From IMG/VR virus record IMGVR_UViG_3300048625_000166: a DNA stretch of 64,000 bases. One strand, 5' to 3'. The position numbers and the translations under genes are program-made. This document shows, in pieces, positions 5,381-54,867 of the stretch (positions are counted from its first letter, which is position 1; each line of letters opens with the position of its first letter). Source of the DNA: a virus. Taxonomy: Duplodnaviria > Heunggongvirae > Uroviricota > Caudoviricetes. The notes under the pieces were generated by a model. It was not told where the DNA came from, did no database searches, and was given only the letters and a program-made list of their open reading frames with translations.

Positions 5381-6105
5381 TTCTTAGTATAAACGAAGTA
5401 CAATCTATCGTTGGCATCTTTCTTGAAGGTGTCTAGCGTAAGATTGTACTTTTCAGCAAACTCATTCACGACTTCAAAACTCCAAGGGAAGATATCAACG
5501 TAGGGACCTGTCTTATGTGAGATGCCTGGATTAGCACGTAGATAAAACTTGCCACCCTTCTTTAAGAGATTGACACAATGCTCAAATCGTGCTTCAATCT
5601 CATCCTTGCTATTAAAGTTAATTGATCCAAGAGCCAGAATTACATCATGTGATTCTGGTTTTACTTTATACTCAAGAATATCAACTTCATAGTCGGCTTG
5701 ATTGTTATATGGGTCGATACCAATTAAGTTTTGAATGCGGCCCTTGAATGGGTGATAGCCACAGCCAACATCAAGTACCTTCTCTGGGTTTAGTTTGTTA
5801 ACTTCATCAGCAAGCTCCCACCCTGTATGCTCATAGTCACCTGTGCGTGGCTTCCAAATCTCTCCAAAGAAGCGCAGGATATATCGTTCGCTCAAATCAT
5901 CGACGATATCTTTCAATGTACCTACGTATTCGCATGGCAAGCTCAATTCGGCCTCTACAGCGTCTTTGAATTTGCGATAACGTGCAGGTGTCCATGGTAA
6001 GTCTTGCACAACGGTGTTTTCGTCAATGGAAATCTTTGCATACTTTGGTAAATTAAACGCAAGTTTCAAATTTTCGCTAACTAGTTTAAAAATTTTAGTG
6101 TTCAT
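5377..6105 (-). CDS. SAM-dependent methyltransferase
   Basis: Motif I VLDVGCGYHPFKG; start moved to internal ATG (MNTKIF...) because the track start is TTG; transcribed divergently from the Bug-like gene. Confidence 0.65.
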   Translation of the reverse strand: MNTKIFKLVSENLKLAFNLPKYAKISIDENTVVQDLPWTPARYRKFKDAVEAELSLPCEYVGTLKDIVDDLSERYILRFFGEIWKPRTGDYEHTGWELADEVNKLNPEKVLDVGCGYHPFKGRIQNLIGIDPYNNQADYEVDILEYKVKPESHDVILALGSINFNSKDEIEARFEHCVNLLKKGGKFYLRANPGISHKTGPYVDIFPWSFEVVNEFAEKYNLTLDTFKKDANDRLYFVYTKN

Positions 6106-6143
6106 AGTAATTTTTTCTAAAAAATATAAATTTCTTGGAAATT

Positions 6144-6151
6144 GTATAAAT
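6144..6151 (+). promoter_or_regulatory. T4-type late promoter TATAAATA (+)
   Basis: Exact TATAAATA 33 nt upstream of ATG 6185. Confidence 0.45.
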
Positions 6152-6163
6152 ATTCTTGTCGTC

Positions 6164-6171
6164 ATATTTAT
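6164..6171 (-). promoter_or_regulatory. T4-type late promoter TATAAATA (-)
   Basis: Forward TATTTATA is TATAAATA on the minus strand, about 58 nt upstream of the MTase ATG at 6105. Confidence 0.4.
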
Positions 6172-6184
6172 ATTAGGAGGAACG

Positions 6185-7165
6185 ATGAAAAAACTTTTAG
6201 CAACACTCACACTAGTTATATTACCTTTGTTCGCATTCGCATGGGAACCATCTAAGCCGGTGACTGTTATTGTGGGTAACACACCTGGAGCAGGCAACGA
6301 AATCGCATTTAGGAAACTAGCAGAGATTGTGCAGAAACAAAACCCAAAGTTTGTTTATGTCGTACAAAACATTCCAGGTGCTGATTCTGTGGTAGCAAAT
6401 AATAAGGTACTAGATGCTCCGACTGACGGCTATACAATCAATTTGCCAAGTCATATGAGTTCATACGTGACTAATGATATTTGGGAAAAGAAAGTTAAAA
6501 AGTATCAATGGGATAGTTTCATCGACGTACTTACAATGGGTAAGAGTCCTCTGGTATTGGTCGCTAGTACAAAAAGTAATGTTAACACGCCAATCGACTT
6601 CATTAGATATCTGCATACTTCTACAAAGCCGATTAATATCGCAGTAGGTGGTGGAGCACACAGAACAGCATATGAGTATTTGATGGAATCTGCACATGGT
6701 GACAAGAATCTAATCACCCACGTGAAGTTCAATGGTCCGATGCCAGCAGTGTCGAGCGTAGCACAATATGATGGTAAGACGGGTACAGAGTTCGGTATCA
6801 TACCAATTGCAGTTGCTCGTTCGTTGATTGATGCAGGTAAAGTTAAACCTATCGGATTCACTGGCACAAGACACATGCCGCAATACCCAGATGTTCCGTT
6901 ATTGAACACAGTAGCACCTGGGATTAACGTGTATGCCGCATGGTCAATTCAACTGCCACCTAACACTAACAAAGAGATTGTAGATTGGTATCAAAAAGCA
7001 TTTAGTACCGCAGTACGTAGTAAAGAATATGCAGAATGGTGCAAATTAAATGTAGTGTTCTATTCAGAAGACGAATTGACTCCGGTTGGTCTAAAGAAAC
7101 ACATGCAAGAATTACGCACAACGTTCTTACCTGTACTAAGTAAGATAGACTTATCTAAGGAATAA
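6185..7165 (+). CDS. Bug/TctC-family periplasmic solute-binding protein (tripartite tricarboxylate transporter receptor-like)
   Basis: Signal peptide MKKLLATLTLVILPLFAFA; PSKP...IVGNTPGAGNEIAFRKLA...NIPGADSVVANNKVLDAPTDGYT...GKSPLVLVAS aligns with BugD/TctC hallmarks; real ATG with AGGAGG RBS. Confidence 0.65.
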   Translation: MKKLLATLTLVILPLFAFAWEPSKPVTVIVGNTPGAGNEIAFRKLAEIVQKQNPKFVYVVQNIPGADSVVANNKVLDAPTDGYTINLPSHMSSYVTNDIWEKKVKKYQWDSFIDVLTMGKSPLVLVASTKSNVNTPIDFIRYLHTSTKPINIAVGGGAHRTAYEYLMESAHGDKNLITHVKFNGPMPAVSSVAQYDGKTGTEFGIIPIAVARSLIDAGKVKPIGFTGTRHMPQYPDVPLLNTVAPGINVYAAWSIQLPPNTNKEIVDWYQKAFSTAVRSKEYAEWCKLNVVFYSEDELTPVGLKKHMQELRTTFLPVLSKIDLSKE

Positions 7166-17577: not shown

Positions 17578-18756
17578 ATGACAAAAACAGTAGCAGTTAT
17601 CGGCGCAGGCATAGCTGGTCTTACAACTGCGTATTACCTTGTTAGAAAAGGTTATCGAGTTACCGTGTATGAGCAAGAGCGATACGCGGCCATGCGTACT
17701 AGCTTTGCCAACGGTGGACAAATGTCTGTTAGCAATAGCGAAGTATGGACAACCTGGAGCAACGTCAAAAAAGGCGTTAAGTGGCTATTCACCAAAGATG
17801 CACCTTTGCTCATTCGTCCATGCTTTGACTGGAAGCAATGGAAATGGATCGCTAAATTTCTGTACTACACTGCCAAAGGTGACTACAAAGAGAATACAGC
17901 ATGGACTGTTCGAGCTGGTCTAGAAGCCAGAGAACTGTACAAAGAAATCATGTTTGAAGAAGGCATTTCGTTTGATTACTTGGGAACAGGTATCGTACAC
18001 TTCTACAAAGACAAACAGTACTGGGACAATGCTCAAACTGTTAAACAGATTTACAACGACAATGGTTGTGAGTGGGATTTACTAACACCGATGCAAGTGA
18101 AAGCTCTTGATCCTGCACTAGAAAATATCGACAACATGATTGGTGGCACATTCACTCCAAGCGATAGTACAGGCGACATTCACAAATTCTGTATGAATCT
18201 AGCGTTAGTTCTAGAGAACAAATACGGCGTTGAATTCAAGTATGAATCAAACATTACTCGCAACTGGGGCATTGAAGCATTAGCTGATGTGTTCGATGCA
18301 GTAGTCATTGCCGCTGGTGTTGGTAGCACTGAATTAGCAGGGCAAATTGGTGACACGCTAGACGTATATCCAGTCAAGGGCTACTCTATCACAATCAACA
18401 ATGTTGATCCTAAGTATTTGCCTAAAGTAAGTCTGTTAGACGATCAAGCCAAGATCGTGACAAGTACATTGGGCAATCGATTCCGTGTTGCTGGTACTGC
18501 TGAGTTGACTGGAGAGAACTACGATATCACTAGAGATAGAGTTGAGCCATTGTTAGAATGGGTTCATACGAACTTTCCTAATATCAATACAAGCGACTAC
18601 ACCCAGTGGGCATGCTTACGTCCTATGACACCTAACATGATGCCTATCACCAAACAGAGTGACAGGAACAAGAAAGTGTTCTACAATACAGGACATGGTC
18701 ATCTTGGTTGGACTCTGAGTCCATACACCTCTAAGACTGTAGCAGATTTAATCTAA
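17578..18756 (+). CDS. FAD-dependent oxidoreductase (DAO/DadA-like)
   Basis: VAVIGAGIAGLTTAYYL...VTVYEQ GxGxxG dinucleotide fold. Confidence 0.7.
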   Translation: MTKTVAVIGAGIAGLTTAYYLVRKGYRVTVYEQERYAAMRTSFANGGQMSVSNSEVWTTWSNVKKGVKWLFTKDAPLLIRPCFDWKQWKWIAKFLYYTAKGDYKENTAWTVRAGLEARELYKEIMFEEGISFDYLGTGIVHFYKDKQYWDNAQTVKQIYNDNGCEWDLLTPMQVKALDPALENIDNMIGGTFTPSDSTGDIHKFCMNLALVLENKYGVEFKYESNITRNWGIEALADVFDAVVIAAGVGSTELAGQIGDTLDVYPVKGYSITINNVDPKYLPKVSLLDDQAKIVTSTLGNRFRVAGTAELTGENYDITRDRVEPLLEWVHTNFPNINTSDYTQWACLRPMTPNMMPITKQSDRNKKVFYNTGHGHLGWTLSPYTSKTVADLI

Positions 18757-21687: not shown

Positions 21688-21716
21688 TTGACTTTATTGC
21701 GTAACTGTGCTACACT
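21688..21716 (+). promoter_or_regulatory. sigma70-like promoter TTGACT-17-TACACT
   Basis: Upstream of uvdE ATG 21746. Confidence 0.45.
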
Positions 21717-21745
21717 TATCTATTATTTATCTCTTTGGACTCCAT

Positions 21746-22780
21746 ATGCACTCTTTTGACCTTACCACAAAACGCATCGGTTTTGCTTGTAAATTCGCTG
21801 AAATTAACAAGAAAGGCGAGATTGCATCCGTCGATGGACTGAACACTGGTGGTACTACACTAGCTTGGGCAAGACGCAACAATCGCAGTACAGTAGAAGA
21901 TAAGCTACTTGACGTTGCAAAAACCAACATTAACAACACTCATGCACTTATCAAGCGTGTGGCATCCCTGCCAGAGCCACTGCGTATGTTGCGTATCACT
22001 AGCGACATGCTGAGTCTCTACACTCATCCAGAATTCAAAGATTTCTGGCAGTCTGCCGACATGCAATCCAGTCTAGAACGCTGGATGGCACCACTTGGTG
22101 AAACTGCACGTGCCAACAATGTTCGTCTTTCATTTCACCCTGGACAATTCGTTGTTTTGGCAAGTGACAGCGACGATGTTCTAAATAACAGTATCGAAGA
22201 ATTTGAATATCACGTGGACTTGGCCAAATGGATGGGCTACGGTAAGCAATTTCAAGATATCAAAATCAACGTACATATCGCAGGTCGTAAAGGCCCACAA
22301 GGCATCCGCGATGCGTACAACCGTTTGTCGCCAGAAGCGAGAAACACACTCACACTAGAAAATGAGGAATACACACATGGACTATCTGACTGCCTATCAC
22401 TATCTGACCTCTGTCCTACGGTCATGGACATTCACCACAATTGGATTCGTGAAGGGTCCTATATTGATCGCAATGACGATCTTGTTAAAAAGGTTATTGA
22501 CAGTTGGCGCGGTGTTCGTCCTACTATGCACTATTCTGTTTCTCGGGAAGACGTACTTGGAGAACATCCCGGACACATCCTTCCCGATCATGGTGCGTTG
22601 ATTCTTGAAGGCCACACAAAAGCAAAGCTCCGTGCCCACTCAGACTTTTACTGGAATGATGCAGTGAATGATTGGGCATTGACTTTCATGGACGGCTTTG
22701 ATATCATGTGCGAATCAAAAGCTAAGAACCTTGCTAGCTATAAACTATACGAAAGAGCAAAACAAAATGGGATTATTTGA
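21746..22780 (+). CDS. uvdE: UV-damage endonuclease UvdE
   Basis: KRIGFACKF...LRITSDMLSLYTHPEF and TIM-barrel-length body typical of UvdE; track start was GTG, moved to ATG. Confidence 0.7.
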   Translation: MHSFDLTTKRIGFACKFAEINKKGEIASVDGLNTGGTTLAWARRNNRSTVEDKLLDVAKTNINNTHALIKRVASLPEPLRMLRITSDMLSLYTHPEFKDFWQSADMQSSLERWMAPLGETARANNVRLSFHPGQFVVLASDSDDVLNNSIEEFEYHVDLAKWMGYGKQFQDIKINVHIAGRKGPQGIRDAYNRLSPEARNTLTLENEEYTHGLSDCLSLSDLCPTVMDIHHNWIREGSYIDRNDDLVKKVIDSWRGVRPTMHYSVSREDVLGEHPGHILPDHGALILEGHTKAKLRAHSDFYWNDAVNDWALTFMDGFDIMCESKAKNLASYKLYERAKQNGII

Positions 22781-46463: not shown

Positions 46464-47096
46464 ATGAAATTTAAACTCTTTGCAATTGCCGCAGTTACGG
46501 CGTTAATGACTGGCTGTGGCACAACCAAGCTAACTGAGGATCCTATTCGCAGTCAGAAACTGTCCACTACTTTCGTTAACGAAAGCATCAAGCTGGAAAC
46601 TGATTGCAAGTGGTACACTATCAACAAAAGCGAGTGCAACATTGTTTCAATTGAATCTACTGGCGTAGCTACTACAAACGGTAACACTGAAAGCAATCGT
46701 CGTGTTGCCTTGATTCGTGCTGGTGACCGCGCACGTGCCGCCGTCCGCCACTTCATTCAAGAAGATGTGTCAAGCTCTCGTGTTAACCAGACGATTGCCA
46801 AGAACGTAGAGAAGGCAAATGATCGCCTCAAGTCTAAGATGGACGGTGTTGATCCAGTTTCTATGAGCGACGATGAAGCCTCCAAAGATACTAACTGGTC
46901 AATTCGTGAAAATGCAAACAATACTGCATATAGCTTGACTGAAACCATTCGTGTCAATGCCGCTGGTATCTTGAAGGGTTTCAAAGTTATCAAACAAGAA
47001 ATGGTCGGACCTCAAGAAGTCGCTGTTACTATTCGCTGGGACCTCGAATCTGAGCGTATGTCCAACCAACTGCGTCGAAAGTTTGACGGACGATGA
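46464..47096 (+). CDS. lipoprotein
   Basis: Lipobox LMTGC; GGAG RBS. Confidence 0.55.
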   Translation: MKFKLFAIAAVTALMTGCGTTKLTEDPIRSQKLSTTFVNESIKLETDCKWYTINKSECNIVSIESTGVATTNGNTESNRRVALIRAGDRARAAVRHFIQEDVSSSRVNQTIAKNVEKANDRLKSKMDGVDPVSMSDDEASKDTNWSIRENANNTAYSLTETIRVNAAGILKGFKVIKQEMVGPQEVAVTIRWDLESERMSNQLRRKFDGR

Positions 47097-48097
47097 AATA
47101 CATTCTAGCGATAGTTGTCTTACTACTCGCTGGATGTGCCACCACTACCAAGTCTGAATTCATTCGTACTACGGGTGAAGGCAACACGTTCGAGCAAGCC
47201 AAACTGGCTGCCTTTCGTGAAGCTATTCAGACTAAAGTAGGTGCCGTCGTCCTCAGTGAGCGTTTACACAACATTGAAAAAACAGTCCAGGACGATATCA
47301 CCGTTCATAGCTCTGGCTATGTAGATGACTATAAAGTTATCAATACGACAAACATCAGCGGCACATATCGTGTCACCGTAGATGTATTGGTAGCTGAAAG
47401 TAAGTTAGCTAATCAAATCCTAACAACCGCAAAAGCAGAAAAAGATTTTGCAGGTGACCGAGCAACTAATGCCTATTCTACATACATGAATCAAGCAAAC
47501 GATGCAGACAAAATTGTTGCACGAGTGCTTAGTGGATATCCACGACATGCTTTCATCCTTGAACAAGGCCCATATGTGATTGGTGTAGATCAGTATCGAT
47601 CTGGTAAAATCGTGCTACCATTCAAAGTTCGATGGAGTAAAGACTATCTGACCGCAGTGGATGAAATTGTTCATCGATATGAAGACAAGCGTGGCGTTGT
47701 TGACAAGATCATGTACAAACCAATGAACATTGTTGAATTTCATTCTAAAAATGATAACTACTTCGGCAAGAATTCAAAATATGAGATTGTTGATCAAAGA
47801 CTGCTAAATACCATTGTCAATAGCGTTTATGGCGCAAATGAAATGCGTATTCGTACCGATGTGTATGACGGCAATCACAATTCCATGTATACTACGTGCG
47901 TAGTGCCGTGGTGGCGTAATTACGGCAAACAATTCTTTTCATCGGACACGTATAACAATATTCTGTTTGATGGCAATCTGGAGCGTAGTGGTGAGTTAAC
48001 TCTTCCAGTGACTAATGCCAATTTACAGATGTACGCTAGAGCCGTGTCTATTGAGTTGTCAATTGTGGCAGTAAAAGATTGTCCACGAGAGCGTTAA
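47093..48097 (+). CDS. lipoprotein
   Basis: Lipobox LLAGC; ATGA coupled. Confidence 0.55.
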   Translation: MKYILAIVVLLLAGCATTTKSEFIRTTGEGNTFEQAKLAAFREAIQTKVGAVVLSERLHNIEKTVQDDITVHSSGYVDDYKVINTTNISGTYRVTVDVLVAESKLANQILTTAKAEKDFAGDRATNAYSTYMNQANDADKIVARVLSGYPRHAFILEQGPYVIGVDQYRSGKIVLPFKVRWSKDYLTAVDEIVHRYEDKRGVVDKIMYKPMNIVEFHSKNDNYFGKNSKYEIVDQRLLNTIVNSVYGANEMRIRTDVYDGNHNSMYTTCVVPWWRNYGKQFFSSDTYNNILFDGNLERSGELTLPVTNANLQMYARAVSIELSIVAVKDCPRER

Positions 48098-48110
48098 GAT
48101 AAATTAATAT

Positions 48111-49313
48111 ATGAGTACTGAAAACAAACTGAACCATTGCTCCTTTTGTGGCAATCATAAAGATGTAGTTAAAAAATTGATCGTTGGCGATGACGTTGCT
48201 ATCTGTAGCGACTGTATTGACCTGTGTACTCAATTAATTGTTGATGACGGCACGGTAGAGGACAATTCTATCAAGACCAATGATCAATATGATCCTGCCT
48301 TAATTAAGACTTACTTGGATCAACACGTTATTGGCCAAGATAGTGCTAAAATGGTACTATCGGTGGCTATCGCAAATCACTATAAGCGAATCACTCATCC
48401 ACCTAAAGATTTAGATATCTCGAAGGGCAACGTTCTTATCGTAGGTCCCACTGGCAGTGGTAAAACATTGCTTGCGAAAACCGTAGCGAAATACCTTAAC
48501 GTTCCATTTGTAGTGGCTGATGCAACTAGCTTAACCGAAGCTGGCTATGTAGGTGATGACGTTGAATCAATGATCAGTATGCTAGTTGCTAATGCAAACG
48601 GCGATACTAAACTAGCAGAGCGCGGAATCGTGTTTGTTGATGAAATCGACAAGATTGCACGTAAGGGTGAGTCTACCAGCTTAACCAGGGACGTTTCAGG
48701 CGAAGGTGTACAACAAGCACTATTGAAACTAGTCGAAGGTACTGTGTGTCGTGTTCCTGCACAGGGTGGTCGTAAGCACCCAGGTGGAGATATGCTAGAA
48801 GTCAACACCAAGAACATCCTGTTCATTGCTGGTGGCGCATTCGTTGGCTTGAAAGACGTTATCGAGCGTAGAACTAACGGCGGTGGCATTGGATTCGGAG
48901 CAACTGTAAAGAAATCCCAACAAGAAAGCAATTTAGGTGAAGTCACTCCTGATGACTTGACTAAGTTCGGCATGATTCCTGAGTTTATCGGTCGATTCAC
49001 TACTACTGTCGCTATTGAGACACTAACAAAAGACGAACTTAAGCGTGTTCTTCTTGAGGTCAAAAACAACTATATCGCCCAGTATCAGTATCTGTTCTCC
49101 ATTGACGGCATTGAGTTGGTATTGGAGGATTCAGCACTGGATCAGATCGTAGATAATTGCGTCAAACTCAAGACTGGCGCACGTGGCTTGCACACTGAGA
49201 TTGAACGTGCCCTAATGCCACACATGTTTAACACTGGTAAATATCGTCAAAACAAGATTAAAAAGATAAATATTAATCAGGAGTTAATTTTAAACCCAAA
49301 ACCAATTGTATGA
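48111..49313 (+). CDS. clpX: ClpX ATP-dependent protease ATPase subunit
   Basis: C4 zinc-binding N-domain CSFCGN...CSDCIDLC; Walker A GPTGSGKT; IGF ClpP-docking loop GIGFGA. Confidence 0.9.
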   Translation: MSTENKLNHCSFCGNHKDVVKKLIVGDDVAICSDCIDLCTQLIVDDGTVEDNSIKTNDQYDPALIKTYLDQHVIGQDSAKMVLSVAIANHYKRITHPPKDLDISKGNVLIVGPTGSGKTLLAKTVAKYLNVPFVVADATSLTEAGYVGDDVESMISMLVANANGDTKLAERGIVFVDEIDKIARKGESTSLTRDVSGEGVQQALLKLVEGTVCRVPAQGGRKHPGGDMLEVNTKNILFIAGGAFVGLKDVIERRTNGGGIGFGATVKKSQQESNLGEVTPDDLTKFGMIPEFIGRFTTTVAIETLTKDELKRVLLEVKNNYIAQYQYLFSIDGIELVLEDSALDQIVDNCVKLKTGARGLHTEIERALMPHMFNTGKYRQNKIKKININQELILNPKPIV

Positions 49314-49528
49314 GAAAAGGCAGACGAGTAATTGTTAATGATGGCAACGTTGAAAAGGCGTTGCGTAAATTTAAAAAGAAGATCGCGGATCAGGACCTGC
49401 TACAGGAAGTTCGTGATCGTGGACAGTTTGTTAAACCTACAATTAAGCGTAAGTTAGCTAAGAGCCAGGCTAAACGTAGATGGCAAAAGTACTTGCGTGA
49501 TCAGAGTTTGCCTAAGAAACTCTATTAA
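49310..49528 (+). CDS. rpsU: ribosomal protein S21 homolog
   Basis: ALRKFKKK...DLLQEVRDRGQFVKPTIKRKLAKSQAKRR matches bS21; ATGA coupled to clpX. Confidence 0.75.
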   Translation: MRKGRRVIVNDGNVEKALRKFKKKIADQDLLQEVRDRGQFVKPTIKRKLAKSQAKRRWQKYLRDQSLPKKLY

Positions 49529-49550
49529 ACCAAAATATTAGAATTTTTTG

Positions 49551-49602
49551 CGTATTTTTAGTTAAATAAATACGACAGTAGATGCCGATGGTCGGGTCTA
49601 CT
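49551..49602 (+). other. two hairpins downstream of the S21 gene (AT-rich CGTATTT/AAATACG, then GC-rich AGTAGA..CCGA-tgg-TCGG..TCTACT), no U-tract
   Basis: Read directly. Confidence 0.45.
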
Positions 49603-49637
49603 ACATGTCATAACTTGCTTATTAAAGGAGAAAACAA

Positions 49638-50075
49638 ATGACAAAAACTTTATCCCTTCGTTCCCTCGACATTCCGTCAATCCACAAATTTGGTATCGGC
49701 TTCGATAACATGTTTGATGAATTAATGCGAATGAATGCTCAACAATCCCTTAACTATCCTCCATACAACATTCTCAAGAATACCGATGATTCATTCGATA
49801 TTCAAGTGGCTGTTTCTGGCTTTAGTGAAGGTGAGATTGAGGTCAATCTTGACAATCGAGTATTGACTATCAAGGGTCAGAAGGCGGAAGATGTAGTTGC
49901 TGAATATCTGCATAAAGGTATCAGTACACGTGATTTCGTGCGTGAGTTCACTCTAGCCGAACACGTTGAGGTAATCAATGCCTCACAAAAAGATGGTATT
50001 TTGACTATTCAACTAGAACGCATCGTTCCAGAAGAAAAGAAACCGAAAAATATCCAGATATCTTATTCTAAATAA
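49638..50075 (+). CDS. small heat-shock protein (Hsp20/IbpA alpha-crystallin family)
   Basis: AAGGAG RBS; aligns along the IbpA length (GFD..F, PPYN, AVAGF.E.EI). Confidence 0.85.
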
Positions 50076-50743
50076 GAATTGCATTTTTCAAAATGCCATC
50101 GTCGCATTCCTGGGGTAGCTCCAGATTTGCCACAATGCGGACAGGTAATCATGATTGAATTAGGATTAACATTCTTTTGAAAATTATGATTACCTTCTCG
50201 AACTAGCTCACGCGCCCGTACTGATTCTTGGTTATATGTTCGACCACTTGATCTGATTCCAATACTAATATTTTTTCGATGTTGATCCGTCTTGAATCCT
50301 TTATAATTATCTTTGTTGGATTTAGGGCCTTGTAATTTTCGGATAAACTCTGGATTTTTAACTTTCGCTTGATTTGCTAATTTAATTTTATTTGCATGAT
50401 CTACTGATTTTGGACCTCTGAGTTTTTCTCTCGTTTCCAATGAATGCTTATGGCCAGTAGTTCCCTCTCCACCATCGGTTTGATTTCTTAGTATACCTGT
50501 CATGTTGTCCTTGCGACCATACCATCTTATCATGCGTCTTTCCAACGCAAAAGCTCCAATTTCAGATAGTGATTGTTCCATGATGATAATTCTACATTCA
50601 TCTACTGGCAAATTTATGCAATGATTTTTGTGCCATGCCCTACCATTAAATCCCTTTCCGATATAGTACGGCGTACCATCGTCGCGCAAATATGCGTAAA
50701 CATAGAACCCAATCGGTGGATTCTTTTTTGAATAAATAGTCAT
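50063..50743 (-). CDS. GIY-YIG homing endonuclease (Seg/I-TevI-like) with NUMOD3 and Zn-finger
   Basis: GFYVYAY...PYYIGKG; [17 protein letters not shown]3; CPHCGK..C zinc finger; GGAG RBS; late promoter upstream. Confidence 0.8.
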
Positions 50744-50805
50744 GCTGATTGCTCCTTGAAAGCGTTAGAGTAGTCGGAGAGGTTAGAGACTCGCGGACTA
50801 CACTT

Positions 50806-50813
50806 TTATTTAT
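50806..50813 (-). promoter_or_regulatory. T4-type late promoter TATAAATA (-)
   Basis: About 63 nt upstream of homing endonuclease ATG 50743. Confidence 0.45.
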
Positions 50814-50823
50814 ACCAAACCAA

Positions 50824-50851
50824 TTGATATTACTTAATTTAGTGATATAAT
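50824..50851 (+). promoter_or_regulatory. sigma70-like promoter TTGATA-16-TGaTATAAT (extended -10)
   Basis: Upstream of clpS. Confidence 0.4.
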
Positions 50852-50857
50852 TAACGA

Positions 50858-50890
50858 GAGTAGTCGAAAGGCTACTCACTTTTTAAATTT
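50858..50890 (+). other. hairpin GAGTAG-N8-CTACTC + TTTTTAAATTT in the clpS leader (attenuator- or terminator-like)
   Basis: Read directly; begins at the predicted transcript start. Confidence 0.4.
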
Positions 50891-50903
50891 AACCGTAAAG
50901 ATT

Positions 50904-51212
50904 ATGCCTACCAAAACTGATACAAAAATTAAAATCAAACCCAACGTTGCTCTACAAGAACCACCGTTGTTTAAGATCATTTATATCAACGATGACGTAA
51001 CGAGCATGGAGTTTGTTGTGTCTAGTTTGATTGACTACTTCAATTACACCGAAGATACAGCCGAGAATATCACCATGGATATTCACAATCAAGGTAGTGC
51101 AGTTGTCGCTATTTTACCTTACGAGATTGCCGAACAAAAAGGCATCGAGGTAACTCTTGACGCACGTAGTCAAGGATATCCACTTCAAGTCAAAGTGGAA
51201 GCTGAGGCTTAA
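50904..51212 (+). CDS. clpS: ClpS ATP-dependent Clp protease adaptor
   Basis: PPLFKIIYINDDVTSMEFVV..L parallels ClpS core [23 protein letters not shown]. Confidence 0.7.
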   Translation: MPTKTDTKIKIKPNVALQEPPLFKIIYINDDVTSMEFVVSSLIDYFNYTEDTAENITMDIHNQGSAVVAILPYEIAEQKGIEVTLDARSQGYPLQVKVEAEA

Positions 51213-51901
51213 ACCTCTATTCTTTTTGCCCAATAAGGGCTCTTATCATAACAAGCGTTATTAATGTAGTTGATGCCATTTAAATTGGTGTCAACTACTT
51301 TTTTATATGTGCCGTACACCCAGTGATTGATCTTGTGTTCAGTATCTGCTTCTAATGCTATCTTCAATGGCAGATGACCATTCACGAAACTTGGCGCTTC
51401 GCCAAAATATAGCTTTTCATCTGGCACACTATTCGATACTACAATAATATTCTTAACATCTAAGTGTTTTTGTAGTCTTTCGATTGTACTCTTGAGGTAA
51501 ATAATATCCTCATGGCGTAATTCTTCGACTTTTAAATCAGTGACCATGTCACTTGGTAACGTGTTGCCGTACCATCCATTTGCTCCTGCAATCGCAATCC
51601 CATCGATAATGACGACATGATGATGCAGTAGAGCCAAGTTACGTATACTACTACATAGCTTGTGTATTTCTTTGGTTCTAGTATCAACGTCAGCTACACC
51701 ATCATATTCCAGTGAACCGAGGGAATAGAACACTCCTTGATAAAACTTACTCAAATGAGATAGGGTTTGATGTATGGTTTTCAAGTCAGGACTAATATTA
51801 CCAGCGATTATGCAATATAAACTAGTCGCCTTGCCTTCCCAATTTAAACTTGCACCTGGTGCAAGATTTAAATCGCTAATTACATCAAACCCAATCTTCA
51901 T
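51209..51901 (-). CDS. calcineurin-like metallophosphoesterase (putative)
   Basis: FDVISDLNL, IIAGNIS, GNHE-like spacing; weak. Confidence 0.4.
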   Translation of the reverse strand: MKIGFDVISDLNLAPGASLNWEGKATSLYCIIAGNISPDLKTIHQTLSHLSKFYQGVFYSLGSLEYDGVADVDTRTKEIHKLCSSIRNLALLHHHVVIIDGIAIAGANGWYGNTLPSDMVTDLKVEELRHEDIIYLKSTIERLQKHLDVKNIIVVSNSVPDEKLYFGEAPSFVNGHLPLKIALEADTEHKINHWVYGTYKKVVDTNLNGINYINNACYDKSPYWAKRIEV

Positions 51902-52230
51902 TATTTTGCTACGCGAATTTTAGCTTTTTTGACTACGGCTTTAGTAGCCTTAGCTTTAGCTGGTTGCTTCGCCGAAGCGGGTTGCTTCTTTGTAGCTTGC
52001 TTCTCAGCAGGGGCTTTCTTGGCACGTGCTTTCTTTGGGGCGGCAACTGGTACCTCAACTGCAGGTGCAGGTTGAACTACTGGTTTTACTTCCTCAACGA
52101 CAGGTGTTTCTACCTTGTACGCGGCTACCGGTGCCTCAACAACAGACTCAACTTCTTGTTTACGTTTGCTGATGAAATACACTAGTGCACCGATGACTAC
52201 GATGCCAATTGCAATGTCTAATGGACTCAT
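51901..52230 (-). CDS. membrane-anchored Lys/Ala/Pro-rich (histone H1-like tail) protein
   Basis: N-terminal TM then KKARAKKAPAEKQATKKQPASAKQPAKAKATKAVVKKAK. Confidence 0.5.
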   Translation of the reverse strand: MSPLDIAIGIVVIGALVYFISKRKQEVESVVEAPVAAYKVETPVVEEVKPVVQPAPAVEVPVAAPKKARAKKAPAEKQATKKQPASAKQPAKAKATKAVVKKAKIRVAK

Positions 52231-52303
52231 TTTTATCTCCTAAACATATATTTACTATTGGACATTTACTACTAATTTTTTGTCTAAAAGTAAACCAAAA
52301 GAT

Positions 52304-52333
52304 TTGATATGTGATAGTTGATTTTTATATACT
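52304..52333 (+). promoter_or_regulatory. candidate promoter TTGATA-18-TATACT upstream of clpP
   Basis: Weak match. Confidence 0.3.
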
Positions 52334-52363
52334 ACATATCTCAATTAATTATTAAGGAGTATT

Positions 52364-52954
52364 ATGAGTCTAGTCCCTATCGTCATCGAACAAACATCTA
52401 AGGGTGAACGTAGTTATGACATTTACAGCCGTCTACTGAAAGATCGTGTTATTTTGCTTGAAGGTGAAGTCCATGATCAAATGGCAAACCTTATCGTTGC
52501 TCAACTACTCTTTTTAGAAAGCGAAGACCCTGGCAAAGATATCAACATGTATATCAACTCTCCAGGTGGCAGTGTCACCGCTGGCATGGCAATCTATGAC
52601 ACCATGCAATTCATTAAGCCAGATATCCATACTATCGTGATGGGTCAAGCGTGTTCGATGGGTTCATTGCTAGCACAAGCTGGAAGCCCTGGCAAGCGTT
52701 TCATGTTGCCTAATGCTCGTCATATGATTCACCAACCATCCGGTGGTGCTCGTGGCATGCAATCGGATATCGAAATCTCCTACAAAGAAATCACTTACTT
52801 GAAAAAGCGTTTGACTGAAATCTACGTCAAACACAACTCCGCTGGTAAGACATACGAAGAATTCGAACGTGACATGGATCGTGATAAGTTCATGAGCGCA
52901 GACGAAGCATTAGCTTATGGTCTAATCGATCAAGTGTTGGAGAAACGTCCTTGA
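52364..52954 (+). CDS. clpP: ClpP ATP-dependent Clp protease proteolytic subunit
   Basis: AAGGAG RBS; catalytic triad context GQACSMGS (Ser), MIHQPSGG (His), [17 protein letters not shown] (Asp); high similarity to bacterial ClpP throughout. Confidence 0.9.
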
Positions 52955-53622
52955 TTAAGTATACACCAGTTCCAGTATCAGAACACGAATCTATTTTAGG
53001 TAAGAATTTTAAAACTAAGTTTGCGGCAGAAATGTGTGCGTATTACGCACCATTTCAAAACAAAAAGCGAGCCATTCAAGTAGCAAAAGAAACCTGGGAA
53101 TATGCAGTGTCTGACAGTATCCCTAAAGCATCATGGGTTGGTGCAGGCAACTACGTAGCAGACGTTAGGGCGCCGACAGCCGACTTAGATGTTAAGGGTC
53201 TAAGCATCAAGAGCATCACTAATAAGCAAAGCTCAGAGGCAAGTGTGTTGCAAAACAACAAACAAGAAAACGATGGTTTCGGTAAGTTGTTTGAAAGCAA
53301 GGACTACAAATCCCTCAAAACTATGTTTGTCGATCCGATTGATGAAAAGATCAAAGATACTAATAATCTACATCTTTTAGCTATCGTCAGGGAAACTTCT
53401 ACTAAGAAAGTTTACTACTCATTGTTGAAAGTTACTAAGTCCAACTTAAATAACAAACAATTTTTAGACCGAATGGTGGTCGATGGTAAACGCAGTATAT
53501 CACTTCCTATGATTGATCCGCAATTCGGTTACACTTATCTTTATATCGCCAAGCGACGAATTGAGATTAGACTGAACTGCGAAGGCATGAAAGACTACTT
53601 AGTTTATTCACACTCTTATTAA
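52951..53622 (+). CDS. hypothetical protein
   Basis: 223 aa, ATGA coupled to clpP. Confidence 0.5.
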
Positions 53623-54361: not shown

Positions 54362-54565
54362 ATGGGTTATAAAATTCTCCGTGAGCGTGATGCTAAGTGG
54401 CAACCTCGCAAAGGTCTTGAAGGTCCTTTCTTCTATCCCAATGGTCAAGTCTTGTACTACGATCCTAAAGAAGGAATGTACTGGGACCCGACAACTGACT
54501 TTTTCGTTGAGTACGAACAAGTTCAGGAATTGCAAAATATGTTTTTGGAAGTTTTGAAAAAATGA
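54362..54565 (+). CDS. hypothetical small protein
   Basis: AAGGAG RBS before internal ATG of track ORF 54284. Confidence 0.4.
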   Translation: MGYKILRERDAKWQPRKGLEGPFFYPNGQVLYYDPKEGMYWDPTTDFFVEYEQVQELQNMFLEVLKK

Positions 54566-54867
54566 AAATCATTCTAGCTCTCGTTATTGCACTCGCCGTA
54601 GGCACATGTTATGCCAAGGGAGGCGGAGGCGGTGGTGGTCATGGAGGTGGTGGCGGCCATGGTGGCGGCCATGCTAGCTCCAGTGGTCACTCGTCATCGT
54701 CTGGTGGCCATTCAACTTCTACTGCAAAGAGTGGATCGACCAGTGGTGCTCATGAATCTGCACCAGCAAAGTCAACAAGTACTACTTCATCTACATGGTT
54801 TCCTTGGTGGAGTCGTGGCGGCTCTAGTTCGACCCAATGCGACAAGAATAAAGATAAAAACTGTTGA
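54562..54867 (+). CDS. secreted Gly/His/Ser-rich low-complexity protein
   Basis: Signal peptide; GGGGGGHGGGGGHGGGHASSSGHSSSSGGHS. Confidence 0.5.
   Translation: MKIILALVIALAVGTCYAKGGGGGGGHGGGGGHGGGHASSSGHSSSSGGHSTSTAKSGSTSGAHESAPAKSTSTTSSTWFPWWSRGGSSSTQCDKNKDKNC

Follow-up and report, generated by a model that had tools for sequence, protein, structure and literature searches.

Positions 48,111 to 52,954 of a 64,000-nucleotide stretch of Caudoviricetes DNA (IMG/VR virus record IMGVR_UViG_3300048625_000166; the whole stretch is called the window below, and all positions refer to it) encode, on the plus strand, the unfoldase ClpX, a homolog of ribosomal protein bS21, a small heat-shock protein (sHsp) of the Hsp20 family, the N-degron adaptor ClpS and the serine peptidase ClpP (Table 1). 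We think it probable that these genes form a conserved auxiliary island in a freshwater jumbo phage of ~364 kb whose relatives include Agrobacterium phage Atu_ph07 and Sinorhizobium phage Phosso, with the expression layout and mode of action proposed below. A preliminary description made from the sequence had named the same five genes and families, and profile hidden Markov models placed each of them where it had been called. The freshwater origin of the clade is our own reading of sample identifiers; no tool output states it. Conservation counts are from the best 80 of 505 IMG/VR loci unless stated otherwise.

Table 1. Features of the island and its flanks, in order of position in the window.
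Feature	Position	Strand	Basis and remarks
Two predicted lipoproteins directly upstream of ClpX	46464-47096, 47093-48097	+	Signal peptides ending LMTGC and LLAGC, by eye
ClpX AAA+ unfoldase with N-terminal C4 zinc-binding domain	48111..49313	+	400 aa; NCBIfam, Pfam, structure alignment
bS21 homolog, coupled to ClpX	49310..49528	+	72 aa; TIGR00030, PF01165
Putative ROSE-type RNA thermometer, Hsp20 5′ untranslated region	49576..49643	+	Co-varying hairpin, then CUUGCU pairing with AGGAG Shine-Dalgarno
IbpA-like small heat-shock protein (Hsp20)	49638..50075	+	Pfam HSP20, phrog_432, C-terminal IQI
Free-standing homing endonuclease, window-specific insertion	50063..50743	-	phrog_15526, phrog_10829, phrog_314; GIY-YIG-like N-terminus by eye
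Decayed duplicate of ancestral Hsp20 3′ end carrying the ClpS promoter	50800..50857	+	Alignment to the Hsp20-promoter-hairpin junction of relatives
ClpS promoter-like site TTGATA-16-(TG)TATAAT	50824-50851	+	11/12 consensus matches plus TG
Conserved stem-loop with GAAA loop in ClpS leader, then T-run	50858..50877	+	RNAalifold; terminator-like scan
ClpS N-degron adaptor	50904..51212	+	Pfam ClpS, alignment to E. coli ClpS
orf230, metallophosphoesterase fold with degenerate metal motifs	51209..51901	-	230 aa; AlphaFold, Foldseek; convergent with ClpS, 4-nt overlap
orf109	51901..52230	-	109 aa; N-terminal hydrophobic segment, Lys/Ala/Pro-rich tail; no family match
ClpP-upstream promoter-like site TTGATA-18-TATACT, then strong Shine-Dalgarno AAGGAG	52304..52333	+	Scan
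ClpP serine peptidase, starting at the mature N-terminus without propeptide	52364..52954	+	PF00574, NF001368, structure alignment
orf223	52951..53622	+	223 aa; TTG start overlaps ClpP stop by 4 nt; no family match

Conservation of the island

A ClpX relative is encoded by 505 IMG/VR stretches, the best 80 of which have ClpX proteins 72–80% identical to that of the window. In these 80 loci the five genes keep one order and one strand, with ClpX present in 80, Hsp20 in 76, ClpS in 75, S21 in 67 and ClpP in 62. ClpP lies 1.1–3.4 kb beyond ClpS in 62/62 informative loci; the denominator is 62 because the 18 loci without ClpP all end 2.5 kb or less from ClpS or ClpX. Ratios of nonsynonymous to synonymous substitution (dN/dS; Nei-Gojobori against the window, with dS saturated for most pairs) are 0.05–0.16 for all five genes and ~0.05 for S21, and the five genes appear from these values to be under strong purifying selection. 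Because order, strand and spacing recur in 80 loci and dN/dS is this low, the island is not a chance arrangement.

The module ClpX..S21..sHsp..ClpS was also found in a sister group at 51% ClpX identity. Since the same order is present in Phosso and Atu_ph07, this backbone appears to predate the split between those soil phages and the freshwater clade, in which it now occupies only ~3 kb and has gained ClpP as a close neighbour.

The window is part of a jumbo phage genome

Profile searches identified a T4-type family B DNA polymerase (PolB), a GH19 endolysin, an ATP-dependent ligase and a UvdE nuclease in the window; there are no tRNA genes in its 64 kb. By protein comparison the closest records are Phosso (469 kb) and Atu_ph07 (490 kb), followed by Rak2-like jumbo phages, and the PolB is 48% identical to that of Phosso and 46% to that of Atu_ph07. 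A 364,247-bp contig carries an orf230 protein identical to the one in the window, and near-identical islands are found on a 361,147-bp contig (Ga0486076_000004, sample 3300045628) and on contigs from ENA samples labelled GROS21-1. Given the polymerase, the match to the 364,247-bp contig and the 505 stretches with a ClpX relative, the window is a piece of a ~364-kb jumbo phage of a very common uncultivated lineage, and the attribution to a phage in the preliminary description holds. Megablast against 50,697 GenBank phage records gave no DNA-level match to the region, which places the clade outside the phages on record there.

The region could in principle be cellular DNA that entered the record by contamination, as a prophage flank or by mis-assembly, or a group of newly captured genes on which no selection acts. 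The ClpP is ~65% identical to bacterial ClpP (a count from the alignment), and two related contigs are binned in bacterial metagenome-assembled genomes (MAGs), as would be expected in that case. These two short contigs were the best "cellular" matches in a scan of reference genomes: L203 (CAYVBV010000123.1, in a "Polynucleobacter" MAG) and L204 (CAZXGO010000081.1, in a "Chitinophagales" MAG) both carry orf569-ClpX-S21-Hsp20-ClpS at ~51% ClpX identity, that is, the phage module, and their bins contradict each other. They are phage fragments mis-binned in bacterial MAGs and belong to a sister group of the window clade. On island-bearing contigs of 344–364 kb the Clp, S21 and Hsp20 genes are embedded among phage genes, synteny extends to two isolated phages, the low dN/dS values speak against an absence of selection, and the best 120 of 2457 metagenomic S21 homologs found by protein search all belong to the phage clade. 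We therefore give a cellular origin practically no weight. The S21 matches had also been considered as a guide to host or donor; this was dropped, as the best 120 of the 2457 include no close cellular S21.

ClpX and ClpP retain the features of an unfoldase-peptidase pair

ClpX scored 512.3 bits against the equivalog model NF003745 (cutoff 359) and 479 against TIGR00382 (cutoff 370.75). Its N-domain matched zf-C4_ClpX (PF06689) at 46.7 bits against a cutoff of 27, and alignment to the E. coli ClpX structure 8e91 gave 399.8 bits. The zinc ligands are C10, C13, C32 and C35, Walker A spans residues 112–119, the pore-1 GYVG is at 145 and Walker B at 173–178; a motif script placed the RKH motif at 221, the IGF loop at 260–262, the arginine finger at R295 and the sensor-II arginine at R358. 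Among 64 relatives the four cysteines are invariant and the other catalytic and pore motifs invariant or nearly so, and the docking loop has I in 58 and M in 6 with G and F unchanged. The zinc-binding N-domain, Walker A and IGF loop reported in the preliminary description were thus all located and are conserved. The sole known role of the IGF loop is docking on ClpP.

For ClpP, scores were 274 bits against PF00574 (cutoff 20.2), 318 against the subfamily model NF001368 (cutoff 249) and 303.6 against the stricter equivalog TIGR00493, just below its cutoff of 308.6. Alignments to E. coli ClpP structures (~262–264 bits) run nearly end to end over residues 1–195. The catalytic triad S98, H123 and D174, corresponding to E. 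coli S97, H122 and D171, is invariant in 46 relatives; with the triad intact on alignment and the ClpP model well passed, the earlier call of a bona fide ClpP with Ser-His-Asp context stands. On paper, the intact motifs of ClpX and ClpP would be enough for a phage-made ClpXP protease.

The same description had put ClpP 2.3 kb from ClpS across two minus-strand genes. Minus-strand genes do precede ClpP; the ClpS-to-ClpP gap, however, is 1151 nt, and the 2.3 kb instead separates the stop of Hsp20 from the start of ClpP (2288 nt), an interval that holds three such genes, the one at 50063-50743 having been missed.

ClpX might instead act for the most part independently of ClpP and serve DNA replication or the assembly of virions as a remodelling chaperone, with the proximity of ClpP being secondary; the action of ClpX on lambda O and on MuA is the model for such a role. 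For Atu_ph07, Attai et al. 2018 (PMC6102473) based their proposal that ClpX acts in replication on its position beside topoisomerase genes, a position shared by the ClpX of Phosso, and Iyer et al. 2021 suggest a role in assembly or as a translocase. ClpP is hundreds of kb from ClpX in both Atu_ph07 and Phosso, and the ClpX of the window lies ~5 kb from a DNA ligase gene. A ClpX freed from ClpP would sit poorly with a ClpP-docking loop kept as [I/M]GF in 64/64 relatives and with a ClpP gene 1.1–3.4 kb away in every informative locus, and we consider this alternative unlikely.

Many phage ClpP-like genes are prohead proteases, and RefSeq labels the Atu_ph07 ortholog "head maturation protease". 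If the ClpP here were a prohead (head-maturation) protease, with the rest of the island serving capsid assembly, the late structural genes to which Chen et al. 2022 (PMC9723584) tie S21 in other phages would offer a parallel. The head-maturation models fit poorly, at 102.3 bits against a cutoff of 120 for NF045542 and 101 against 475 for NF045540, in contrast to the 318 against 249 for the ClpP subfamily. The match to cellular ClpP chains takes in the N-terminal gating loop of the axial pore, the neighbourhood has no gene for a capsid, portal or scaffold protein, and the promoters are sigma-70-like and not of late type. A prohead protease is accordingly very unlikely in our estimate, and we take ClpP to be the probable peptidase partner of ClpX.

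At the place of the ClpP promoter-like site, many relatives have a near-consensus TTGACA-17-TGnTATAAT. In L011, L008, L072, L001 and others, where it stands ~60 nt upstream of ClpP, there is in addition an inverted repeat in which bases just 5′ of the -10 face the stretch from the Shine-Dalgarno (SD) sequence to the ATG. The arms co-vary (AAATTTCC/GGAAATTT, AAACTTCC/GGAAGTTT and AACTCTC/GAGAGTT); the repeat is not obvious in the window. Such a structure would hide the ribosome-binding site only in read-through transcripts, and recalls the arrangement in T4, where this site is masked in transcripts that read through.

An ATGA overlap couples S21 to ClpX

The S21 homolog scored 54.8 bits against TIGR00030 (cutoff 28.95; residues 6–61) and 52.1 against PF01165 (cutoff 27). 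Its match to a ribosome-bound bS21 is full-length, with residues 14–71 aligned to 12–70 of the 71-residue chain 10fz_U, and it carries the N-terminal extension MRKGRR. The stop codon of ClpX and the start codon of S21 share the ATGA at 49310–49313. The preliminary description had drawn attention to this overlap; of 67 loci with an S21 gene, 66 retain it.

At the start of ClpX itself (positions 48060–48113, and in relatives), a conserved AAAGATAAATTAATATATG stands just upstream and there is no SD-like purine run, unlike the strong AAGGAG sites that precede Hsp20 and ClpP. The strong SD sequences argue for a host that uses SD pairing.

Hsp20 is preceded by a ROSE-like leader

Hsp20 scored 69.2 bits against PF00011 (cutoff 20.8) and matched phrog_432 at E=2.7e-40; direct reading of the sequence gives IQI as its C-terminal I-x-I motif. 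The Rfam model RF02523 (ROSE_3) matched its leader at 27.8 bits (E=0.011), with the whole model covered and the model AUG lying on the Hsp20 ATG. Among relatives the same model gave 42.6 bits (E=1.9e-5) in L077 (6782–6848), 28.2 in L003 and 26.6 in L011, the gathering score being 43. Compensatory changes were found in 4 of the 10 pairs of hairpin 1, and the CUUGCU…AGGAG pairing in the cmscan alignment is invariant in 22 relatives. The minimum free energy fold of the single sequence leaves the SD region only partly paired. These comparisons point to a ROSE-like leader that is not a member of the curated ROSE_3 family. No earlier report of a ROSE element ahead of a phage sHsp was found in the searchable literature.

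Two other readings of the region upstream of Hsp20 were dropped. Spacing was unfit for a T4 MotA box or a late promoter, and a palindromic operator around the TATAAT is not kept in all relatives.

ClpS, its promoter and its leader

ClpS scored 86.9 bits against PF02617 (cutoff 23) and aligned without gaps to E. coli ClpS (2w9r). Residues N34, D35, T38, M40 and H66 (E. coli numbering), which form the N-degron pocket, are all kept; among 55 relatives N, D, T and H are invariant, M is present in 53, and D36 varies between D, N and E. E. coli E79, E82 and K84, the contacts to the N-domain of ClpA, correspond to E74, E77 and K79 of the phage protein, where both glutamates are found in 55/55 relatives and the lysine is K in 49 and R in 6. 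We found no experimental work on a phage ClpS in literature searches.

A ClpS promoter and structured leader had been proposed in the preliminary description, and comparison of relatives supports both. In relatives a TATAAT-type -10 lies directly 3′ of the Hsp20 stop, with variants TATACT, TATTAT, TATAGT and TAGAAT all keeping T-A-…-T, and the -35, TTGCTA, consists of codons of the C-terminal I-A-I motif of the sHsp. The leader hairpin has 9 pairs, 8 of them with compensatory changes (RNAalifold, 36 sequences), a T-run follows in about half of the copies, and a search of Rfam gave no family match for it. The hairpin may terminate the Hsp20 transcript, stabilise the 5′ end of the ClpS mRNA, or do both.

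In the window this junction has been split by a homing endonuclease gene that occurs in 0/80 relatives and is absent from the near-identical L199-L202. The gene was inserted within the last ~30 nt of Hsp20. As a result the 3′ end of the live gene is recoded sequence, and the decayed old 3′ end, together with the promoter and the hairpin, has moved 0.8 kb away to a place still ahead of ClpS. A word, GAGTAGTCG, that occurs twice upstream of ClpS was considered as a possible signal and rejected: it is not enriched (6 matches in the window against 7.7 expected), and there are two copies because the endonuclease insertion made a duplication.

ClpS is an adaptor in search of ClpA

The docking site of ClpS is the N-domain of ClpA or, in some lineages, ClpC; once docked, ClpS hands N-degron substrates to ClpAP and keeps other substrates from it. 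ClpS is not known to interact with ClpX or to have a role with it. The phage ClpS proteins discussed by Attai et al. 2018 (PMC6102473) and Iyer et al. 2021 are likewise tied to ClpA.

The window has no candidate open reading frame (ORF) for ClpA, and none lies within 10 kb of the island in the 80 relatives. A query with the ClpA of Atu_ph07, a true two-ring protein with a Clp_N domain whose gene adjoins DnaJ, returned 36 loci, 0 of them on a clade contig. A scan with a 14-sequence ClpA alignment gave no clade contig among the matches listed (the best 80 of ~540–600), and three scans with close-relative ClpA proteins (clusters from the same samples) shared 0 contigs with the ClpX list among the best 80 of ~540–600 each; these lists show ~13–16% of the matches each, and a zero overlap at that depth has little power and is uninformative. 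A ClpA protein search matched by longest contig also placed no ClpA on a known contig of the clade. Many Rak2-like and PA5oct-like phages do carry ClpA. Very large families of divergent ClpA with the motifs FDMSEYQE or YDMSEYQE were seen in IMG/VR (L238-L460; at least 540–600 stretches per query), on viral contigs of 320–375 kb that come from the lake samples in which the ClpX clade occurs.

The preliminary description had spoken of a complete Clp system of ClpX, ClpP and ClpS. That grouping does not hold: ClpS is an adaptor of ClpA or ClpC, the contacts equivalent to E79, E82 and K84 are kept, and the window lacks ClpA. ClpX and ClpP are the complete pair, and ClpS is an orphan adaptor whose partner would be host ClpA or a phage ClpA encoded outside the window.

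Binding of ClpS inhibits both the breakdown by ClpAP of ssrA-tagged proteins and other substrates and the autodegradation of ClpA. The phage protein could therefore act as an inhibitor or decoy of host ClpAP, shielding phage proteins or blocking a host response. Such an effect of ClpS on ClpAP is established, the ClpA-contact residues are conserved, no phage ClpA was seen on clade contigs among the matches listed, and ClpS can be expressed separately because it has its own promoter. A pure decoy would not need an N-degron pocket, and N34, D35, T38, M40 and H66 are conserved as well as the ClpA contacts. We regard the decoy as a doubtful possibility and retain ClpS as a probable substrate-delivering adaptor.

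Comparison with known systems

The combination had been called unusual in the preliminary description. It is known from cultured relatives, as both Atu_ph07 and Phosso already encode the gene set, and neighbours of this kind have been counted: in the survey of 900 published phages by Chen et al. 2022 (PMC9723584), the genes no more than ten away from bS21 included Hsp20 (n=127) and members of two Clp protease families (n=50 and 47). Attai et al. 2018 (PMC6102473) described ClpX, ClpA, ClpB, ClpP and ClpS of Atu_ph07, Iyer et al. 2021 discussed ClpP, ClpS (proposed to feed host ClpAP), ClpA, ClpX and Hsp20 of jumbo phages, and Al-Shayeb et al. 2020 reported S21 in huge phages. The island is thus a well-documented new example. 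What it adds in detail is the compaction with ClpP close by, the ROSE-type element before Hsp20, the co-varying ClpS hairpin, the split by the endonuclease and the S21 of Atu_ph07 described next.

Atu_ph07 (MF403008) is likewise a jumbo phage with ClpX (gp2), ClpP (gp676), ClpS (gp708) and Hsp20, in the order ClpX..S21..sHsp..tk..ClpS across the record origin. Its S21 had never been annotated before: AUZ95452.1 (83 aa, 489096–489347; L237 13097–13348, minus strand), deposited as "hypothetical protein" between ClpX and Hsp20, scored 47.2 bits against PF01165 (cutoff 27) and is an S21 homolog. Atu_ph07 differs in genome size (490 kb) and in its host, a soil Agrobacterium. Its genes take up ~5 kb, interspersed with further ORFs and a thymidine kinase gene, ClpP is ~25 kb away, and ClpA, ClpB and DnaJ are encoded as well. 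ClpX and S21 are ~1.9 kb apart there and therefore cannot overlap.

Phosso (PV764938) is the closest cultured relative, with ClpX 50.5% and ClpP 70.7% identical to those of the window, and has ClpX..S21..sHsp..tk..ClpS on one strand (annotated, with domains verified). In Phosso, however, the set extends over 17 kb with tRNAs and many small ORFs, and ClpP is ~350 kb away. Directly after ClpX stands not S21 but a genuine IF-3 with IF3_N and IF3_C domains (the pair at 380983–382829; L236 4984–6830), and its own S21, 7 kb downstream, has no BLASTP similarity to the S21 of the window (E=12). The ClpX-IF-3 pair of Phosso is a second case, after ClpX-S21 in the window, of ClpX beside a gene for translation initiation.

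The pairs ClpX-bS21 and ClpX-IF-3 could reflect a functional partnership of the phage unfoldase with translation initiation. ClpXP would then strip off or destroy factors of the host 30S platform, hibernation factors or host bS21 itself, and phage bS21 or IF-3, co-made in stoichiometric amounts, would replace them; host ribosomes would be converted to a phage-preferring state, with the ROSE-gated sHsp and ClpS as stress-responsive accessories. The conserved adjacency is what suggests this partnership, which we consider quite unlikely.

In surveyed bS21 phages (Chen et al. 2022, PMC9723584; Mizuno et al. 2019; Al-Shayeb et al. 2020) bS21 has been proposed to enter host ribosomes and favour phage mRNAs, and these proteins share the basic N-terminal extension. 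The clades of Chen et al. 2022 differ from the window in having Bacteroidetes hosts and a reverse-strand S21 among late structural genes, whereas S21 in the window is coupled to ClpX among sigma-70-like promoters; the Clp/Hsp20 neighbourhood was not dissected in that study.

Relative to the cellular systems, all residues of the ClpX, ClpP and ClpS motifs tested match those of E. coli ClpXP and ClpS, and the sHsp stands behind a ROSE-type 5′ untranslated region as does proteobacterial ibpA. Phage ClpP differs from that of E. coli in lacking a propeptide. Bacteria have clpP-clpX and clpS-clpA operons; in the window ClpX is paired with S21, and ClpS stands alone without an adjacent clpA.

Neighbouring genes

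The two predicted lipoprotein genes end 13 nt before ClpX, are kept in 56–58 of the 80 relatives and have no family match; they are probably co-transcribed with ClpX and S21. The gene for orf230, present in 75/80 loci, is always tail-to-tail with ClpS. Its AlphaFold model (pLDDT 87.5) matched PptH, MPPED2 and Rv0805 in Foldseek at TM ~0.6. DLN, GNIS, GSLE and GTY(K/G) replace the metal motifs DxH, GDxxD, GNH[DE] and GHxH, and the replacements are themselves conserved. The protein is probably not a canonical phosphoesterase, and the consistent replacement of metal-ligand motifs suggests a pseudo-enzyme. The remaining ORFs around ClpP are of narrow distribution: orf109 occurs in 2/80 loci, with a 144-aa ORF at the same place in L199-L202, and orf223 only in the closest relatives (3/80 loci plus L199-L202).

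Elsewhere in the window, cell-like genes encode a TctC-family solute-binding protein (6014–7165), a DAO-family FAD oxidoreductase (17578–18756) and the UvdE UV-damage endonuclease (21707–22780). A small protein at 54562–54867, apparently secreted as judged by eye, has a Gly/His/Ser-rich low-complexity region (GGGGGGHGGGGGHGGGH…).

Proposed expression and function

The layout suggests at least four expression units. The first would run from the genes upstream through ClpX to S21, whose translation would be coupled to that of ClpX; the second a promoter, the ROSE element and Hsp20; the third a promoter, the 5′ hairpin and ClpS; and the fourth a promoter, ClpP and orf223. Because the promoters are sigma-70-like, they would be transcribed by the RNA polymerase of the host, probably at an early stage of infection. 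Phage ClpXP, with or without host subunits mixed in, would remodel the proteome of the infected cell, and ClpS would turn a ClpA-ClpP protease, the host's or one with phage ClpA encoded elsewhere, from its default substrates to those with N-degrons. The sHsp would hold unfolding proteins once the thermometer opens, and phage bS21 would enter host 30S subunits and bias translation initiation. A takeover of host proteostasis and translation is the standard hypothesis in the literature and would be plausible here.

Several results weigh against this reading. S21 is cleanly absent from 13/80 loci, where the gap from ClpX to Hsp20 is 46–107 nt; it is thus dispensable, useful to the phage but not essential. 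At the ClpP docking pocket, by our reading of the sequence, the position of Y60 of E. coli ClpP is Asn in the phage. Hsp20 scored 114 bits against the IbpA equivalog model NF008013, below the cutoff of 212, and appears to be a divergent sHsp closest to IbpA, not an IbpA equivalog. All nine NCBIfam ClpS equivalog models were also below cutoff (best 75.4 against 149), which makes the phage ClpS divergent, and the ROSE_3 score of the window falls short of the gathering score. As a class, promoter-like sites are not in excess, with 11 found against 17.5 expected in shuffled sequence; those discussed here are supported by conservation, not by the scan. Finally, we infer every functional step past the intact-looking proteins.

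Biological implications

Clp proteins, an sHsp and S21 thus occur together as more than an isolated case: strong selection maintains them as an old backbone of a lineage of jumbo phages that abounds in lakes. The separation of ClpS from the ClpX-ClpP pair corrects an annotation error that is likely to recur, in which a ClpS gene beside ClpXP is read as part of one machine. Atu_ph07 and Phosso are cultured and carry the same genes, which makes knock-outs feasible, and the conserved coupling of S21 to ClpX yields a testable prediction of co-expression. The ROSE-like element before the sHsp suggests that phages retain host-type stress gating on captured genes.

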